Source: Candidatus Saccharimonadales bacterium
GTDB lineage: Bacteria; Patescibacteriota; Saccharimonadia; Saccharimonadales; JAXHNE01
DNA length: 64,000 nucleotides
Direction of reading: 5' to 3'
Assembly (NCBI GenBank): GCA_041600755.1
Contig: JBFIJL010000002.1
Location: forward strand, 144,850-208,849
Below, in pieces: positions 6,750-32,410 of this stretch. The stretch's first letter is position 1, and every line of letters starts with the position of its first letter. The translations under genes and the position numbers were made by a program. The notes beneath the pieces are model-generated. The model searched no databases. It was given only the letters and a program-made list of their open reading frames with translations, and was not told the origin of the DNA.

Positions 6750-8177
6750 ATGAAGACACGCACTAGATTCGCACCAAGCCCAACTGGCTATTTACATGTT
6801 GGAGCAATGCGCACAGCCTTGTTTGCCTGGCTATTAGCGCGCCAAGATGGTGGAAAGTTTATACTGCGCCTTGAAGACACAGACCAAAAACGTGAGGTTA
6901 GTGGAGCCGATGAACACATCATGAAATCTCTCAAGGCTTTAGGCCTTCAATATGATGAAGGGCCAGATGCTGATGGCGATTTTGGACCTTACCGTCAATC
7001 CGAGCGTCTAGAAATCTACCAAGAATGGGCAAAAAAACTAGTTGAAAAGGGTAGAGCGTATGCTGATCCCTATACGTCCGCCGAAGTTCAATCATTCCGT
7101 GAGCAAGCACAGAAAAGCAAAAAGCCATTTTTGTATCGCAATCACCGCCCGAAGACACCGCCCACCTGGGACGACAGTACGCCATTGAGGTTAAAATCTG
7201 ACCCAAAAAGCTACACCTGGACTGATGCCGTAATGGGAAAGCTTCACTCTGGGCCAGAAGTGATAGACGATATTATTCTTATCAAATCTGATGGCTTTCC
7301 AACCTACAATTTTGCGCATATTATCGATGACTTATTAATGGAGTGTACACATGTAATTCGCGGCCAAGAATTCACAGCCAGCACACCAAACTATCTAAAC
7401 ATATACGAAGCACTGGAAATCACACCTCCAATTCTTGCAACTGTGCCACCAATCTTGGGACCAGGTGGCAACAAAAAACTCAGCAAACGAGATGGCGCCA
7501 AAGACATCCTTGAGTACATCGAGGACGGAATCTTACCGGCGGCATTGATCAACTTCATTGCCAGTTTAGGCTGGAACGATGGCACCGAGCAAGAATTATT
7601 TTCTGTTGATGAATTAATCCAAAAATTCAGTTTAGACCGCGTCCAACGCAGCGGAGCACAGTTTGACGATCGGCGATTGCTATGGATGAACGGCGGACAC
7701 ATCCGGGCTATGGATATCGACACCCTATACGAGAAGGTTGCCGCCTACTGGTCAGCTAGTGCGGCCACGGCTGACGAAGAATACAAAAAACAAGTCCTTG
7801 CGCTTACTCAAGAACGTCTCAAGTTGTTTTCAGAGCTACCAATGCTTACTAATTTTTTCTTTGAAGACCTTCCTGTTGATATGACACTTATAACAGAGCA
7901 CAAGCAGCTAAAGAAGCTTGAACAAGAAGAGCTAAAAAAGCTCCTGAGTGACGCCAAACAGACACTAGACGCTAGTGATTTCACAGCCCCAGATATTCAA
8001 GAACGATTAAACACACTTCTTGAGACTAGTGGACAAAAGCCGGCCGTCTTATTTAGCCTGATTCGTATCGCTACAACCTGGGCGCCATTCAGCCCGAGCC
8101 TTGCCGAAACCCTAGAAGTAATCGGCCGCGAAAAAGCCATGTCCCGCTTGGAAAATTCACTGAATTCGCTGAACTGA
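6750..8177 (+). CDS. gltX: glutamate--tRNA ligase
   Basis: RFAPSPTGYLHVG (HIGH-type) and KLSKRDG (KMSKS-type) motifs are present, and the length is right. Confidence 0.95.
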   Translation: MKTRTRFAPSPTGYLHVGAMRTALFAWLLARQDGGKFILRLEDTDQKREVSGADEHIMKSLKALGLQYDEGPDADGDFGPYRQSERLEIYQEWAKKLVEKGRAYADPYTSAEVQSFREQAQKSKKPFLYRNHRPKTPPTWDDSTPLRLKSDPKSYTWTDAVMGKLHSGPEVIDDIILIKSDGFPTYNFAHIIDDLLMECTHVIRGQEFTASTPNYLNIYEALEITPPILATVPPILGPGGNKKLSKRDGAKDILEYIEDGILPAALINFIASLGWNDGTEQELFSVDELIQKFSLDRVQRSGAQFDDRRLLWMNGGHIRAMDIDTLYEKVAAYWSASAATADEEYKKQVLALTQERLKLFSELPMLTNFFFEDLPVDMTLITEHKQLKKLEQEELKKLLSDAKQTLDASDFTAPDIQERLNTLLETSGQKPAVLFSLIRIATTWAPFSPSLAETLEVIGREKAMSRLENSLNSLN

Positions 8178-8237
8178 ACTTAACCATCGCGCCCAAACAC
8201 TAGCATCATAGGCCCGTAGACTGGTACAATGCACACA

Positions 8238-9380
8238 ATGGAAAATCAAGACACTCACGCACCCGGCCCTGGCATTGCGCCGCCACCAAAAAAACATGGC
8301 AAGATAAAGGCAAAGATTCATCAACTAATTGCGCCTTGGCAACGTTTGCCGCTTAGAAACCGTGTACTTATTTTGGTAATTTTTGGGATTTTTATTACAT
8401 CCGCCACGGTTACTGCTCTTAAGGTCTTTACTAAGACTCCGGAACCTGCCCCGGTTGCATATGCGCCAGCTCCAGAACCGGAACCAGAGCCAATCAAAAC
8501 AACCGCTCCATCACCTCTAACTGGAGTCGAAGTAGACATACCGCTCAGTAAACTACCCGTTACTGCTGTCATGATAGAAAACAGCCCTGATGCTCGCCCG
8601 CAGTCTGGACTCAATCAAGCGGGTGTAGTTTTTGAGGCTATCGCCGAAGGTGGTATCACACGGTTCAACGCCTTGTTCCAAGAAGCTCAGCCAGACTATA
8701 TAGGTCCAGTTCGATCAGTGCGACCATATTATCTAGACTTCTTCGTGCCGTTCGATGCTGCGATTGCACACGCTGGCGGTAGCGGACAGGCTTTGGCCGA
8801 AATACAAAATCAAGGAATAAAAGATATCGACCAATCGTTCAACCCCGGATATTATCAGCGCGTCAGCAGTCGATACTCTCCACACAACCTCTACACAAGT
8901 CGCGCTCAACTTCTTGAACTGCAAAAAAGTAAAGGCTTTACCGAGAGTAAATTCATTGGCTATCCGCGCAAGGCAGAAGAGCCAGCTGAAGTCACGACCG
9001 CCAATAACATCGCATTTGATATATCTGGATTTCTATATAACACCAGCTACACTTACGACAAAGCTAGCAACAGCTACCTGCGAAGCCTAGCAGGCAAGCC
9101 ACACACCGATGAACGCTCTGGCGCACAAATCTCACCGAAAGTTGTCATCGCCCTGGAATCTTCCCATCACTACCAAGGTATTTACTCTGTTTATCAAGTT
9201 ACTGGCAGCGGTGGAGTGACCGTTTTTCAAGATGGGGTCGCAACCAAAGGCACTTGGTCAAAGGCCGGCCGAACTAGTATGTTTGAATTTAAAACCACCG
9301 ATGGTGAGCCGCTCAAACTAAATGCAGGCCAAACCTGGATAACAATGATACCGGCTGGCAAATACAGCTTCGGACTTTAG
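8238..9380 (+). CDS. DUF3048-domain protein (secreted or membrane-anchored)
   Basis: MIENSPDARPQSGLNQAGVVFEAIAEGGITRF is typical of DUF3048. The -10 TACAAT at 8225-8230 overlaps the ORF-track ATG at 8229, so the ATG at 8238 is more likely. Confidence 0.7.
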   Translation: MENQDTHAPGPGIAPPPKKHGKIKAKIHQLIAPWQRLPLRNRVLILVIFGIFITSATVTALKVFTKTPEPAPVAYAPAPEPEPEPIKTTAPSPLTGVEVDIPLSKLPVTAVMIENSPDARPQSGLNQAGVVFEAIAEGGITRFNALFQEAQPDYIGPVRSVRPYYLDFFVPFDAAIAHAGGSGQALAEIQNQGIKDIDQSFNPGYYQRVSSRYSPHNLYTSRAQLLELQKSKGFTESKFIGYPRKAEEPAEVTTANNIAFDISGFLYNTSYTYDKASNSYLRSLAGKPHTDERSGAQISPKVVIALESSHHYQGIYSVYQVTGSGGVTVFQDGVATKGTWSKAGRTSMFEFKTTDGEPLKLNAGQTWITMIPAGKYSFGL

Positions 9381-28436: not shown

Positions 28437-29111
28437 ATGTATAGATTTGATACACTAGCCACAACTATGGCCTTATTTCAGAAAAATCCGTTCAGCGAAG
28501 ATGTCGGCAAACAACTTTACAGTTTTGGACATACCAAGACAATGCTGGTTGTGGGGCTTGGAAATGTCGGCAAGAAGTATGAGCTCACTCGGCATAACTT
28601 GGGTTTTTTAACTGTCGATCATTTTGCAGTGAATAACGACTTCCCAGGCTGGATAGAAAAAAAAGACACCAGGTGTCTGTTGACCAAAAAAACTATGGGT
28701 GAAACGGAGGTGATTTTAATTAAGCCAACCACCATGATGAACCTCAGCGGCGAAGCAGTACAGGCGATTTCCCACTTTTATAAAATTCCTACAGAGCATA
28801 TATTGGTCGTCCACGACGAGCTAGACATTAACTTTGGGCAAATCAGGACCAAAACTGGTGGTGGGGCAGCAGGCCACAACGGGATCAAAAGCGTTACACA
28901 GCACCTAGGTGAAAACTATGGACGGATTCGGATTGGCGTGAACTCTCCGGACCGCCCCGAACAGATGGACAGTGCCGATTACGTCCTAGCAAGCCTTTCA
29001 AAATCCGAACAGGCAGAGCTTCCACACCTCAACCGTGAAGTTGCAAGCATCTTAACCGAAACAATCTACAGCGGCACGTTGGCTACTGAAACCCGTAATT
29101 TTATTATCTAG
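28437..29111 (+). CDS. pth: peptidyl-tRNA hydrolase
   Basis: LVVGLGNVGKKYELTRHNLGF and HDELD motifs. The true start may be an internal ATG (for example 28467). Confidence 0.9.
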   Translation: MYRFDTLATTMALFQKNPFSEDVGKQLYSFGHTKTMLVVGLGNVGKKYELTRHNLGFLTVDHFAVNNDFPGWIEKKDTRCLLTKKTMGETEVILIKPTTMMNLSGEAVQAISHFYKIPTEHILVVHDELDINFGQIRTKTGGGAAGHNGIKSVTQHLGENYGRIRIGVNSPDRPEQMDSADYVLASLSKSEQAELPHLNREVASILTETIYSGTLATETRNFII

Positions 29112-29431
29112 AAAAAGTCATCGGGCTGGCATGTCCGAATGCGCACTTGGAAATCTCGAATATTCACTTCCGACTCAAGATCTTCTATCGGGACACCCAG
29201 CTCCCACTGCATACTTTCTAATGTTGATAAGTGTGTCTGGATTTCAATTTGCTCTGCATCCGAAATGCTATCCTCTAGTGAAACCATTTGTAGATTTAAG
29301 CGGCTATTTTTTATAGCGCGCAGCAGCCAAGACTCGCTGAGCACCCAACTCATAGGCAAATCGCCATATCCAAGCGCTGCACTTTCGCCAGGAGATGTGA
29401 AAACTGTGTCATTCTCGCGCTCAAACTTCAT
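29108..29431 (-). CDS. small acidic hypothetical protein (third of three)
   Basis: An ORF rich in D/E. The ATG at 29431 lies inside the last codons of the upstream gene (ATGAAGTTTGA overlap), which suggests translational coupling. Confidence 0.45.
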   Translation of the reverse strand: MKFERENDTVFTSPGESAALGYGDLPMSWVLSESWLLRAIKNSRLNLQMVSLEDSISDAEQIEIQTHLSTLESMQWELGVPIEDLESEVNIRDFQVRIRTCQPDDFF

Positions 29432-29798
29432 AGATCTGATCCGTACCTTCCTGATATTCCTGCTCAGCAACAGTCTCTCTAAAGATCGACAAAGACATGG
29501 CTTCGTCTTCCAGCAAAGAATCCAGTTGCTTTACTTCATCCAACATCTCATCAAGCAACCAAATTTCGTCAGCACATTCATCCAGGAATTGACGCAATGC
29601 ACTACTTGATGACTCATAAGACTCGTAGGACTCTTGATCTTGGATTAGTCCCACAAGGCAATATCTACGGACTGGTAGTATATTTTTCAGTGCACCAATT
29701 GCATCCTCAACCAACTCAACAGGCTCAAATTCAAAGCCTACAACCTTTGCCTCGTGCTCATTTAGAGTCAGAGTACGAGTAAAATAATCAAAATTCAC
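29421..29798 (-). CDS. small acidic hypothetical protein (second of three)
   Basis: 125 aa and very acidic (EDE, DE runs). It contains FEFEPVELVE. Confidence 0.45.
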   Translation of the reverse strand: MNFDYFTRTLTLNEHEAKVVGFEFEPVELVEDAIGALKNILPVRRYCLVGLIQDQESYESYESSSSALRQFLDECADEIWLLDEMLDEVKQLDSLLEDEAMSLSIFRETVAEQEYQEGTDQIYEV

Positions 29799-29850
29799 GA
29801 GTATAGACCCCTATTTACAAGCACAAATACTAACGAAGCAATGCCTTGAA

Positions 29851-30168
29851 TCACTCCGAAGCCTCTCTTATGAATTTATCGTAATCCAGATCAACAGTCT
29901 TGATATTGCTAATGTATTCAACCAATTGCTCTGAAGCTAGCAACAGAACACGTCTAGTATGTTCTGCCCGCTGTCGAGCAGTCATGGCATCTGCCGAAGA
30001 ATGAAACATGTAGACAGACTTGCCCTCATCAATATCGGCAATACGATCCACAATTAAGTGCAGAAAATCTTCAGAATTAGCAAATGCTAGTAGATCGCCC
30101 GGTGCCGGCACTGCTCGTTGCTCTACAGGTTCGAGCTCCCAGGACTGTGTTTCAAAATTTGGACGCAT
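29851..30168 (-). CDS. small acidic hypothetical protein (first of three)
   Basis: The ATG at 30168 has GGAG 10 nt upstream. The 23-codon N-terminal extension in the ORF track is the translation of a terminator hairpin. The protein contains WELEPVEQ. Confidence 0.45.
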   Translation of the reverse strand: MRPNFETQSWELEPVEQRAVPAPGDLLAFANSEDFLHLIVDRIADIDEGKSVYMFHSSADAMTARQRAEHTRRVLLLASEQLVEYISNIKTVDLDYDKFIREASE

Positions 30169-30185
30169 ATATTTTTTACTCCAAC

Positions 30186-30231
30186 AATATATAAAAGAGC
30201 CTCCAGAGGGGGTGGGCACCGCTGGAGGCTC
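30186..30231 (-). terminator. intrinsic terminator (10-bp perfect GC-rich stem plus T-tract)
   Basis: The minus strand reads GAGCCTCCAG-cggtgcccaccccct-CTGGAGGCTC-TTTTATATATT. Confidence 0.75.
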
Positions 30232-30628
30232 ATTCAAGCAGCCAATAGCCTTGGCTTATTAATCATAGCCGGAGAGCTCTGTTCTCGCAAAAGTACAGAC
30301 CTCTCCAGTTTTTGAACGACTTCGCTAAAAATCGTCCATCCACCCTTCAACCCACACCCGGCAAAGCGTGTACAACGTACGCATTGACGGTCACGCATCG
30401 TCCCGAGAGACGAATACTGGATATTTGCCATTGAATTGTAGTTAAAGGGGTTAGTTTGTTTTAGAACGGTGCCACTCCGAAGAGAGCAGCAAATGAAAAA
30501 GCGGAGGGTAACAACTTGATCGCACGCTCTAAAACAACCTAACAAAACCATTCTTTCAAGTAAACTTGAAATTCAGGTGTTAGAATTGGGGGTATAAGGT
30601 GCATAAAACGCCTTAACGACGCTTACAA
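30186..30628 (-). ncRNA. candidate structured RNA (~440 nt) of unknown class, or a long structured leader of the acidic-protein operon
   Basis: No credible ORF is present. TGcTAGTAT (-10 at 30635-30640, minus) lies upstream. Several nested helices are present, including an 8-bp long-range pair, a C(UUCG)G hairpin and an 11/12-bp hairpin. The region ends in the intrinsic terminator. Confidence 0.4.
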
Positions 30629-30682
30629 GTTGCAATACTAGCAAATTTGTGACGATATGTCAATACTAAAAAACATTTTATT

Positions 30683-31540
30683 ATGAAATGCAAGACGCTT
30701 ATGCTTTCAAAATCTGAGATGCCTGAACAGCTTCGTCAGATTCCGGATCCTCCGGAAAAACTCTATGTGCGTGGCAACCTTACAAACTGCCTGACTGCAC
30801 CGCTCCTCGCTGTTGTAGGGAGCAGAAAAGTATCAACTTACGGACGACAAGTAACAAGCAAGCTGGTAAGAGGTGTTGCGGGGCAGGGGGTTGGCATCGT
30901 TAGTGGGTTGGCGCTTGGAGTAGATGGACTAGCTCACAGTGCAGCACTTGAAATGAGCGCACCAACAATTGCTGTTATGCCGTGTGGTCTGGACGCCATC
31001 TATCCACAAAGCCATTTTCATATGGCCAAACAAATCCTAGAAAGCGGGGGAGCGCTAATTAGCGAATACCCGGACGGCACACCGCCACTTAGACATCATT
31101 TTATTGCTCGAAATCGATTGGTGTCGGGCCTGGCCGATGCCGTACTAATCACTGAAGCCGCGGCCAAAAGCGGCACACTTCATACTGCCAACTTTGCGCT
31201 CGATCAAGGCAAGACCGTTCTAGCCGTTCCCGGTAATATCACCAGCGAACTAAGTCAAGGAACCAACAATTTATTAAAGGCTGGGGCGCTTATAGTGACC
31301 GAACCAGCAGACATATTACTAGCTATGGGTGTTGACGATTCTGTGTCGCAGCGAGAATTATTCGGAGATACTCCTGCCGAATCAGCTGTCCTGCAACACC
31401 TACAAGCCGGCATTACCGACAGTGCTACGCTTCAAAAAATAACTAAGCTAAGTGCAAGCGAATTTAGTCAGGCTTTGACGATGCTCGAAATTAGGGGAAT
31501 TATAAAAAATCATGGCAGTGGGCAGTGGTCAACTAGATAG
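30683..31540 (+). CDS. dprA: DNA-processing protein DprA
   Basis: VVGSRKVS.YG, SGLALGVDGLAHSAAL and GTLHTANFALDQGKTVLAVPG motifs. Confidence 0.9.
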   Translation: MKCKTLMLSKSEMPEQLRQIPDPPEKLYVRGNLTNCLTAPLLAVVGSRKVSTYGRQVTSKLVRGVAGQGVGIVSGLALGVDGLAHSAALEMSAPTIAVMPCGLDAIYPQSHFHMAKQILESGGALISEYPDGTPPLRHHFIARNRLVSGLADAVLITEAAAKSGTLHTANFALDQGKTVLAVPGNITSELSQGTNNLLKAGALIVTEPADILLAMGVDDSVSQRELFGDTPAESAVLQHLQAGITDSATLQKITKLSASEFSQALTMLEIRGIIKNHGSGQWSTR

Positions 31541-31678: not shown

Positions 31679-32410
31679 ATGGACGCTCGCGAGCAAGATG
31701 CAAAATTTGAGACTGGCATTTCGGTTGAAGAAATCGCGGACATTGTCGATTGCCATGAGCGCCATGCTCAGCTCTGGCAAGATAGACATTTTTGCCAAAC
31801 TTTGGGTACGATTGCGCTCATAACTCCACTAGCTCTACGTCAACACAGTTCAGCGCGGGGCGCTAAAAGAGAACGAAAAGCATATATTAATGAAACTGAG
31901 GACTTTAGAAGACAGCTAACTCAAAGTGGTCGGGACGTAGTAATCGCCTACGGTGCAACTGCGGTAGACGTTGCCGAACTAGCAGGCGACGAGCTTATCA
32001 GTGAACTTTACTTTATTGGCAATGGATCGTTCTCATCAGTCTGGACTCAAACTTTGTCAGTTTCGTGGAGAACACTTTCAGAAGCCAGTGATCACCTTAA
32101 AGAAAAAATTGTACAAAGAACCTGTGGTGGCTCAGACGATGGCATTGATCTGCCGATTGGGACATTCAACGTACAAGACCAGAGAATGATAACAACCCCT
32201 CGCTATGGACGCTCTGTGCCTGACAAAAATCCAGGCGATGAGTGTTTTATCCAGCCCTTCAATAAACCAGTGCAGTCTATTGAAGACCTCCTCAACCTGG
32301 AAGACAAGCTCAGTCGGTCAATTCATATCTCAACAAGACAAGCTCAGCTGGCAGAAGCGGCCCGCCAAAGCTTTGCTGTCGCGCTCCAGCCAATACTATC
32401 AAATATTTGA
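31679..32410 (+). CDS. hypothetical protein
   Basis: A 243-aa ORF between dprA and topA, with no recognised motif. Confidence 0.45.
   Translation: MDAREQDAKFETGISVEEIADIVDCHERHAQLWQDRHFCQTLGTIALITPLALRQHSSARGAKRERKAYINETEDFRRQLTQSGRDVVIAYGATAVDVAELAGDELISELYFIGNGSFSSVWTQTLSVSWRTLSEASDHLKEKIVQRTCGGSDDGIDLPIGTFNVQDQRMITTPRYGRSVPDKNPGDECFIQPFNKPVQSIEDLLNLEDKLSRSIHISTRQAQLAEAARQSFAVALQPILSNI

Follow-up and report, generated by a model that had tools for sequence, protein, structure and literature searches.

The gap upstream of dprA in a 64,000-nucleotide (nt) stretch of a Candidatus Saccharimonadales genome (assembly GCA_041600755.1, contig JBFIJL010000002.1, positions 144,850 to 208,849 of the forward strand; hereafter "the window") very probably contains a free-standing gene for a stable, highly structured noncoding RNA (ncRNA) that belongs to an uncatalogued family and is apparently characteristic of Saccharibacteria (Saccharimonadales). 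We are highly confident that the element is a real ncRNA, structured and independent, and that it represents a new family. It has discrete gene signals, lies on the minus strand, is conserved among relatives, folds into defined helices, and is independent of its neighbouring genes. An earlier note, made from the letters of the window, had proposed a heavily structured, ORF-free minus-strand transcript of ~440 nt with its own promoter and terminator, and had left open whether this was a novel ncRNA or a giant leader. The homologues, gene signals and covariation described below support the predicted transcript and the first of these options, and the sequence features listed in the note are present, in place or nearly so.

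Gene signals and RNA strand

The RNA gene occupies the gap between dprA and a set of small downstream open reading frames (ORFs). Its signals, and the position of dprA, are as follows:

30683-31540, plus strand: dprA; a 445-bp gap separates it from co-linear small minus-strand ORFs
30658-30663, minus strand: -35 hexamer TTGACA of the RNA gene (promoter scan)
30635-30643, minus strand: extended -10 element TGcTAGTAT, with a 17-nt spacer from the -35 hexamer (promoter scan)
About 30626-30631, minus strand: predicted transcription start, placed from the -10 element
30186-30631, minus strand: the RNA gene in full, spanning about 440 nt between the predicted start and the U-tract (homologues found with nhmmer and a covariance model; fold z = -4.84)
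30186-30196, minus strand: U-tract UUUUAUAUAUU, which completes the intrinsic terminator (sequence; aligned homologues also have a T-run after the hairpin)

The combination TTGACA-17-TGcTAGTAT was the best match in the promoter scan, with 10/12 positions plus the TG extension; this confirms the extended -10 element picked out earlier by eye and adds a -35 hexamer 17 nt upstream of it. All 109 full-length homologues have a TTGACN hexamer, a spacer of 16-17 nt and a TGnTAnnnT extended -10 element, and the terminal hairpin was predicted in 108 of the 109. At the 3' end of the RNA, a G+C-rich 10-bp hairpin (30197-30231) followed by the U-tract has the form of an intrinsic terminator. A simple terminator scan did not list this hairpin, the loop of which, as scanned, is longer than the 3-8 nt limit. 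The minus-strand sequence has a predicted folding energy of -157.2 kcal/mol, as compared with -121.5 +/- 7.4 kcal/mol for dinucleotide shuffles (z = -4.84, with 0/100 shuffles folding as well), whereas the plus strand folds more weakly, at -131.8 kcal/mol. G·U pairs are frequent in the helices (UG:15, GU:15 and UG:15 of 98 sequences at positions in helix P3; GU:12 and UG:7 in helix P8), and they fix the minus strand because the other strand would have A·C mismatches in their place. The promoter, the terminator and the wobble pairs together indicate that the minus strand is the RNA strand, and the RNA is predicted to be transcribed from a strong sigma-70-type promoter and to end at an intrinsic terminator.

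The structured region does not appear to encode a protein, as had been proposed. The only long ORF in the gap is a Cys-rich frame of 105 amino acids (aa) at 30234-30551 on the minus strand. No ORF is kept in frame across the homologues, in which the longest stop-free stretch on the RNA strand ranges from 35 to 122 aa (median 59), and indels at hairpin tips in the homologue alignment break any common reading frame. The sequence MNEPPAVPTPSGG at the N-terminus of the 128-aa ORF at 29851-30237 is a translation of the terminal hairpin, which the earlier note had recognised as spurious; this ORF would more plausibly start at the ATG at 30168, behind a GGAG at 30179-30182. Hence, both the 105-aa Cys-rich ORF and the MNEPPAVPTPSGG extension are read out of structured RNA.

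The start of the longest dprA ORF (30683) is only 20 nt from the -35 hexamer of the RNA gene, and the identical DprA protein in the public annotation (P0001, 279 aa) starts 6 codons later. We also observed a second conserved GACAT within the promoter spacer of the RNA gene (TTGACATAAtGACAT in the consensus; region 30635-30701), such that ATGTCA occurs twice on the dprA strand. The divergent dprA and RNA promoters, as read from these signals, may be interdigitated and compete for RNA polymerase.

Distribution and genomic setting

By the relatives of its DprA, the window falls within Candidatus Saccharibacteria (Saccharimonadales). We recovered the region using nhmmer in 10/10 Saccharibacteria dprA loci, in which DprA is 45-65% identical to that of the window. 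Seven of the ten loci share the 3' hairpin at 84-98% identity, and a shorter identical core is present in two more. Conservation of the region upstream of dprA therefore extends to every Saccharibacteria relative examined. A search motif made of two invariant blocks, TACCCTCCRCTT-N30-58-CTAAYCCCTTTA, matched all ten Saccharibacteria dprA loci and 0/18 non-Saccharibacteria dprA loci. The same motif matched at least 120 metagenome contigs, mostly from JGI (Ga... identifiers); all 120 metagenome contigs among the matches listed carry a homologue, most of them full length, with nhmmer E-values between 1e-19 and 1e-112. One IMG/VR contig also carries a homologue, which brings the total to more than 130 genomes and metagenome contigs of Saccharibacteria. 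With a covariance model of the 5' domain, the window and each Saccharibacteria locus gave a single match, and the 18 non-Saccharibacteria dprA loci gave none. The RNA measures 268-525 nt between its predicted start and the U-tract; copies differ in length at the tips of hairpins, and some 100 nucleotides in junctions and loops hardly vary. Searches of the whole window against Rfam 15 (4227 families) at the gathering threshold yielded no match, consistent with the failure of the earlier note to place the RNA in a recognisable class. The RNA thus appears to represent a new family.

The RNA gene lies between housekeeping genes in most loci. Upstream of it is a divergent dprA in 79 of 98 loci and topA in 7 of 98. 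Downstream, a convergent pth is found within 6 kb in 76 loci, at a distance of -8 to 3503 bp from the 3' end of the RNA; in 19 of these 76 loci pth comes directly after the RNA, with a gap of < 150 bp and nothing between. The remaining gaps between the RNA and pth contain small ORFs, almost all of them singletons and often acidic, that number 67 across the loci, with 43/67 co-oriented with the RNA. No Pfam domain scored above threshold in eight proteins scanned, which included the three acidic ORFs of the window and three from other loci. Because the sequence downstream of the RNA is either variable in content or a convergent pth, the RNA is independent of its neighbours, and we conclude that it is an independent transcription unit and not a leader.

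On the other side of dprA, between dprA and topA, the window contains a 243-aa ORF (31679-32410) with only a sub-threshold match to HTH_23 (E = 0.0013, below the Pfam cut-off). This ORF has no counterpart among the clustered neighbours of the other loci, and is another lineage-specific insert in the syntenic block.

Secondary structure

The RNA has the following architecture: a 5' hairpin, P1; P2 or, alternatively, an extension of P3; P3, with a three-way junction that carries the two arms P4 and P4b; P5, with a variable hairpin and the P6 domain inside it; the P7 region, which varies; and a terminal hairpin, P8. Comparison of the aligned homologues strongly supports P1, P3, P6 and P8 by covariation, with more limited covariation for P5. 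The elements in the window, all on the minus strand and listed in the 5' to 3' direction of the RNA, are as follows:

30603-30626: P1, 5' hairpin GUAAGCGUC / GGCGUUUUAU (a hairpin in the 89 homologues folded)
30585-30602: J1/2, near-invariant single-stranded GCACCUUAUACCCCCAAU (two smaller alignments and the 109-sequence alignment)
30538-30584: P2, UCUAAC (30579-30584) with the invariant GUUAG(G) (30538-30543), enclosing a variable tip hairpin (30544-30578)
30525-30537: P3 5' strand UUGUUUUAGAGCG, pairing with 30456-30468
30499-30517: P4, hairpin AAGU/GCUU with the 11-nt loop L4, UGUUACCCUCC (30503-30513), in which UACCCUCC is invariant
30471-30490: P4b, variable hairpin capped by a UUCG tetraloop in the window (minimum free energy (MFE) fold; homologues have a hairpin of variable sequence and length here)
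30456-30468: P3 3' strand CGUUCUAAAACAA, pairing with 30525-30537
30450-30454: CUAAC, alternative partner of the invariant GUUAG (P3 extension), which excludes P2 (first pair GC:80 GU:18, the others invariant)
30441-30449: P5 5' strand CCCUUUAAC, pairing with GUUGAAGGG at 30343-30351
30359-30430: P6 domain, closing helix UGGCAAA/UUUGCCG and internal hairpins (the helix covaries; the internal hairpins are from the MFE fold only)
30343-30358: G-rich block GGUGUGGGUUGAAGGG; its 3' part is the P5 3' strand, and its 5' part (GGGUGGGU in most homologues) is a candidate pseudoknot partner of L8
30232-30342: P7 region, a 111-nt lineage-specific expansion with three predicted hairpins (energy prediction only)
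30197-30231: P8, terminal hairpin, stem GAGCCUCCAG/CUGGAGGCUC plus inner GG/CC pairs, with the 9-nt loop UGCCCACCC at 30210-30218

Within the 5' domain, 90.9% of alignment cells pair, as compared with 75.7% in shuffles and 31-48% when slid. In the tests that covered P1, P3 and P8, 0/500 shuffles reached the observed covariation score, and the slid controls scored far lower. Alignments built with the covariance model lean towards the structure of the model, and counts from MAFFT-based alignments agree with them. All seven P1 pairs change on both sides, with 84% of cells paired in the covariance-model alignment. P3 is the best-supported helix: 12/12 pairs show compensatory double changes, ~97% of cells are paired, and UUGUUUUAGAGCG/CGCUCUAAAACAA is swapped in other lineages for UUGCAUGCAACG/CGUUGCCUGCAA, for UUACAUACACGG/CCUUGUAUGUAU, and for others. 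The GUUUUAGA/UCUAAAAC helix of the earlier note is part of this 13-bp helix (30525-30537 with 30456-30468) and shows many of these compensatory changes. With P1, P3 and P8 all changing on both sides of their pairs, covariation is strong and strand-specific. The P4 stem is AAGU/RCUU across the homologues, and pairing is 94-100% at its four inner pairs. The window closes the stem with U·G, as opposed to the U-A of most homologues; read from the other strand, this U·G would be an A·C mismatch. In the MFE fold, P4b includes the C(UUCG)G hairpin noted earlier.

P2 and the P3 extension compete for the same GUUAG. In P2, 98.4% of cells pair, with changes of the one-sided wobble type only and a tip that varies greatly in length among homologues. 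The P3 extension is ~98% pairable, again with one-sided, wobble-type changes only. Two homologues (L134 and L034) lack the P2 5' strand, and two others (L069 and L003) duplicate GUUAGAU, such that P2 and the P3 extension can form together, indicating that the two are real alternatives. The choice of GUUAG between the upstream UCUAAC and the downstream ACUAAC could represent a folding switch or a co-transcriptional intermediate.

A segment of the P3 5' strand, GUUUUAGAGC (30525-30534), is identical to the start of the Streptococcus pyogenes Cas9 repeat. We rejected a link to a Cas9 repeat or tracrRNA; the P3 strand covaries to unrelated sequences such as GCAUGCAACG, there are no cas genes nearby, and the identity is a coincidence.

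In the 3' half of the RNA, P5 is 99% paired; its outer C-G pair becomes G-C in the AAG/CUU subgroup, and one pair is U·G as opposed to U-A in a ratio of 92:17. Covariation in P6 is exemplified by one pair with CG:42 UA:33 UG:11. P7 is a single hairpin in most homologues, and the expansion in the window makes up about a quarter of its copy of the RNA. The helices at ~30314-30337 and 30271-30306 and the GCCAA/UUGGC hairpin, all described earlier, fall in this expansion: they are present in the MFE fold but are predicted from energy only and do not belong to the core structure. Also inside the window-specific expansion is a promoter-like site, TTGCGA-17-TATGAT (30262-30290, minus strand; 9/12 matches); if this site is active, its transcript must still pass the P8 terminator before reaching the acidic ORFs. 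In P8, 14/14 pairs change on both sides, and 94.9% of cells pair, as compared with 69.6% when shuffled and 45-58% when slid. While this stem covaries freely, its 9-nt loop, (U/A)GCCCACCC, is essentially invariant, and we conclude that the 3' hairpin is more than a terminator. The "textbook terminator" that had been described at 30186-30231 is thus upheld as a hairpin with a U-tract and not as a terminator alone.

Next to the P5 3' strand, on its 5' side, GGGUGGGU can pair with the L8 loop in 94% of cells, making an L8/GGGUGGGU pseudoknot plausible on the basis of complementarity. Two other long-range pairings, of the loop CGGUG with GCACC in J1/2 and of AAGUGAG with CUCCACUU, were discarded because they are not kept in other subgroups.

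Possible functions of the RNA

The helices of the RNA vary and covary, whereas its junctions and two hairpin loops are nearly invariant. This pattern suggests a defined tertiary fold that works as a ribonucleoprotein (RNP) or a ribozyme, rather than a simple antisense small RNA. Four invariant C-rich elements, namely AUACCCCC in J1/2, UACCCUCC in L4, AACCCC in J3/5 (within P5) and GCCCACCC in L8, face a single G-rich block. Covariation accounts for J3/5 AACCCC through P5. We found no internal partner for L4 or J1/2, and none for J1/2 by covariation; these two would be the best candidates for contacting an external partner.

We propose that the RNA would act in trans as an RNP-type or regulatory RNA, the functional surfaces of which would be the invariant, C-rich, single-stranded L4 (UACCCUCC), L8 (GCCCACCC) and J1/2 (AUACCCCC). 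One C-rich element, probably L8, would dock on the G-rich block GGGUGGGU as a pseudoknot and lock the fold, leaving the others free to bind either a G-rich partner, such as a Shine-Dalgarno-like GGAGGG sequence, or a protein. Several points weigh against this account of the RNA. The transcript, its ends and its abundance are read from sequence signals alone. The homologues were gathered by an RNA-derived motif plus dprA synteny, so that the distribution given above holds within this motif space and may differ outside it, for example in oral Saccharibacteria such as Nanosynbacter. The L8/GGGUGGGU pseudoknot shows no covariation, since both of its sides are invariant, and it is broken in two homologues (L054 and L116). 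In ~0.9 Mb of flanking Saccharibacteria DNA, extended antisense sites for L4, J1/2, L8 and J3/5 were in no excess over a reversed-motif control. Lastly, the gene neighbourhood indicates no protein partner.

A tentative version of this proposal, which we consider rather doubtful, is that the C-rich loops recognise G-rich RNA, for example by occluding ribosome-binding sites in the manner of RsaE/RoxS. We considered it because the complement of L4, GGAGGGUA, is Shine-Dalgarno-like, recalling RsaE/RoxS. Those RNAs, from Firmicutes, likewise have invariant C-rich motifs in hairpin loops and a terminator hairpin that is part of the functional RNA. By contrast, the RNA described here is three to five times larger, has a complex covarying scaffold and an internal G-rich block, and has no match in Rfam.

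It is possible, and at least as likely as the occlusion of ribosome-binding sites, that the RNA serves to bind proteins, as a scaffold or sponge like OLE, 6S or CsrB RNA, in an RNP with no base-pairing targets. The presence of multiple invariant single-stranded motifs on a rigid scaffold, and the lack of complementary targets in the ~0.9 Mb of flanks, are consistent with this, and most large bacterial ncRNAs with an assigned function are RNPs. On the other hand, no conserved partner gene is adjacent to the RNA, the neighbours being the housekeeping genes dprA, topA, pth and der, and the motifs are not repeated units, unlike those of CsrB-type sponges.

The RNA could also be a new ribozyme, with the invariant junctions as its catalytic core and acting by self-processing or in trans. 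Its junctions and loops are fixed while its helices covary and their tips vary, and a pseudoknot is likely; such a pattern is typical of large ribozymes. We regard this as unlikely, however: the RNA has no similarity to the known ribozyme families in Rfam and no conserved processing-site context, and most large orphan bacterial RNAs have proved not to be ribozymes.

Possible traces of mobile elements

In three homologues, a further, incomplete copy of the terminal loop and 3' stem follows the RNA on the same strand, at ~182 nt in L092 (e.g. CGGTGCCCACCCCTCTGGAGTCTTTTT), at ~981 nt in L095 and immediately downstream in L047. These resemble the duplicated attachment (att) sites that elements leave behind when they insert at the 3' ends of tRNA and transfer-messenger RNA (tmRNA) genes. 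We saw no integrase beside the RNA loci with partial 3' copies. The only IMG/VR match (L149, IMGVR_UViG_3300049064_000004) has a full-length RNA at 7927-8379 that adjoins Dam- and Dcm-type methyltransferases, an FtsK/SpoIIIE-PD-(D/E)XK protein and a weak match to RecT; no match to dprA, pth, der or topA was found in the 8.4 kb examined. Either a mobile element has inserted next to the gene in this contig, or the copy is carried by an element.

These traces, and the hypervariable spot that forms the 3' flank of the RNA, could indicate that the RNA is associated with mobile elements, with the 3' hairpin serving mainly as an attachment site or the RNA being carried by a phage or integrative element. 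Against this, the RNA is single-copy and occupies a fixed chromosomal site between dprA and pth in most loci, blastn found no match to it in 50,697 phage or 72,556 plasmid records, and a role as an att site would not explain ~270 nt of covarying structure and a conserved promoter. We therefore consider such an origin quite improbable, and conclude that the gene serves at most as an integration target, like tRNA and tmRNA genes. It shares with those integration hot spots a conserved 3' end, a hypervariable segment after it and occasional partial 3' duplications; it differs from them in having no tRNA-like domain, variable segments that are mostly < 1 kb, and no integrase seen.

The acidic ORFs downstream of the RNA

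According to the "giant leader" option of the earlier note, the RNA would be a cis-acting giant 5' leader or attenuator of the acidic-protein operon, with the terminal hairpin as a regulated terminator. Consistent with this idea, the next ORF in the window is co-oriented with the RNA, its ATG (30168) is ~20 nt past the U-tract behind its own GGAG, and the promoter scan found no separate promoter between the U-tract and this ORF; expression of the acidic ORFs in this genome probably depends on read-through of the RNA terminator. The predominance of RNA-oriented ORFs in the downstream variable spot (43/67) points the same way. The three acidic ORFs (29851-30168, 29421-29798 and 29108-29470), however, form one lineage-specific insert within 29108-30185, and clustering of neighbours found them in the window only. 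Downstream content differs in nearly every locus, the next conserved gene being in most genomes a convergent pth, which follows immediately in 19/76; there is no conserved co-oriented downstream gene of the kind expected for a riboswitch or 5' leader; and the RNA, its promoter and its terminator are kept whatever lies downstream. A leader function is already largely refuted by synteny, and we consider it extremely unlikely.

Comparison with known RNA families

At E<=10, searches of Rfam 15 with queries of 701 nt and 311 nt, covering the window copy and a 290-nt minimal homologue, returned only chance matches to eukaryotic microRNAs, small nucleolar RNAs and long ncRNAs. There was no match to the models for 6S, signal recognition particle (SRP), OLE, GOLLD, ROOL, raiA or HEARO RNAs in Rfam, including at E<=10. 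ARAGORN found no tmRNA, only two tRNAs elsewhere in the window, and there was no tmRNA match in Rfam. Covariance models of RNase P RNA (RF00010, RF00011 and related) gave no match at either the gathering threshold or E<=10. We found no description of the RNA in the literature on ncRNAs of Saccharibacteria or of the Candidate Phyla Radiation (CPR), our coverage of which is incomplete. Other than as a stand-alone structured ncRNA gene, the RNA fits none of the classes named in this paragraph, nor a 5' leader or a protein-coding gene.

In general form the RNA is most like OLE, GOLLD, ROOL and raiA RNAs, which are also several hundred nt long, with multi-helix junctions, invariant junction and loop nucleotides and variable tips, are restricted to particular lineages, and have functions that cannot be deduced from their neighbours. 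It differs from them in matching none of their Rfam models and in its host, Saccharibacteria as opposed to Firmicutes, Actinobacteria or phages. It has a fixed chromosomal locus and its own strong promoter; unlike OLE, it is not in an operon with a partner protein (oapA), and unlike GOLLD and ROOL, it is not typically phage-borne.

Class A RNase P RNA is likewise similar in size, encoded by a single-copy, stand-alone gene with a promoter and terminator, and built of a conserved core with variable peripheral helices. Moreover, the G-rich stretch GGGUUGAAGGGUG is reminiscent of GGGUGAAAGGGUG in J11/12 of E. coli RNase P. This stretch can, however, be shown to form the 3' strand of P5. The ends of the RNA form separate hairpins, P1 and P8, with no closing P1-type helix or acceptor stem; inspection of the consensus revealed no P4-type RNase P motifs, including P4 pseudoknot motifs; and there was no Infernal match at E<=10. 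We weighed RNase P as an identity because RNase P of CPR bacteria can be very diverged, and ruled it out by the architecture and the lack of a match to any model.

More broadly, we consider it extremely improbable that the RNA is a highly diverged copy of a universal RNA (RNase P, tmRNA, 6S or SRP) that standard models miss. Its size range suits RNase P or tmRNA, it is single-copy and strongly conserved in reduced genomes, and in some CPR bacteria RNase P RNAs are found only below Rfam thresholds (PMC8172020). The searches and the architecture described above argue against this explanation, as do reports that a class-A RNase P RNA is present in all 35 circular CPR genomes studied by Lui et al., two of them listed as Saccharimonadia (PMC8172020), and that PGAP annotates 2 ncRNAs in a Nanosynbacter genome (PMC8830319).

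Significance

Large, intricately folded bacterial RNAs are rare, and the classes for which a function has been solved have nearly all revealed new biology, as for RNase P, tmRNA, 6S RNA, and the guide RNAs of IscB, which were originally listed under the name HEARO. Saccharibacteria live as epibionts, are extremely small, and can spare little of their ~1-Mb genomes for genes that are not needed. The RNA described here combines ~100 near-invariant nucleotides, a near-perfect promoter and a fixed position across lineages with DprA identities of only about 45-70%, and this conservation in reduced genomes is an argument that its function is important and defines the lineage. Current annotation pipelines do not report it. 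With > 100 sequences and a helix map it is a ready target; some Saccharibacteria are culturable and genetically tractable, and its function would be directly testable if tractable strains carry it. Our best guess is that it is a stable RNP-type or regulatory RNA that presents the invariant C-rich loops UACCCUCC and GCCCACCC. A bolder and rather unlikely idea is that it is an unrecognised housekeeping RNA of Saccharibacteria, either as a ribozyme of a new kind or as the RNA component of a novel RNP, with a core function such as translation control or RNA processing. If so, it would be a housekeeping RNA under strong selection in genomes of ~1 Mb, doing something that other bacteria handle differently, and would rank with 6S or OLE as a separate class.

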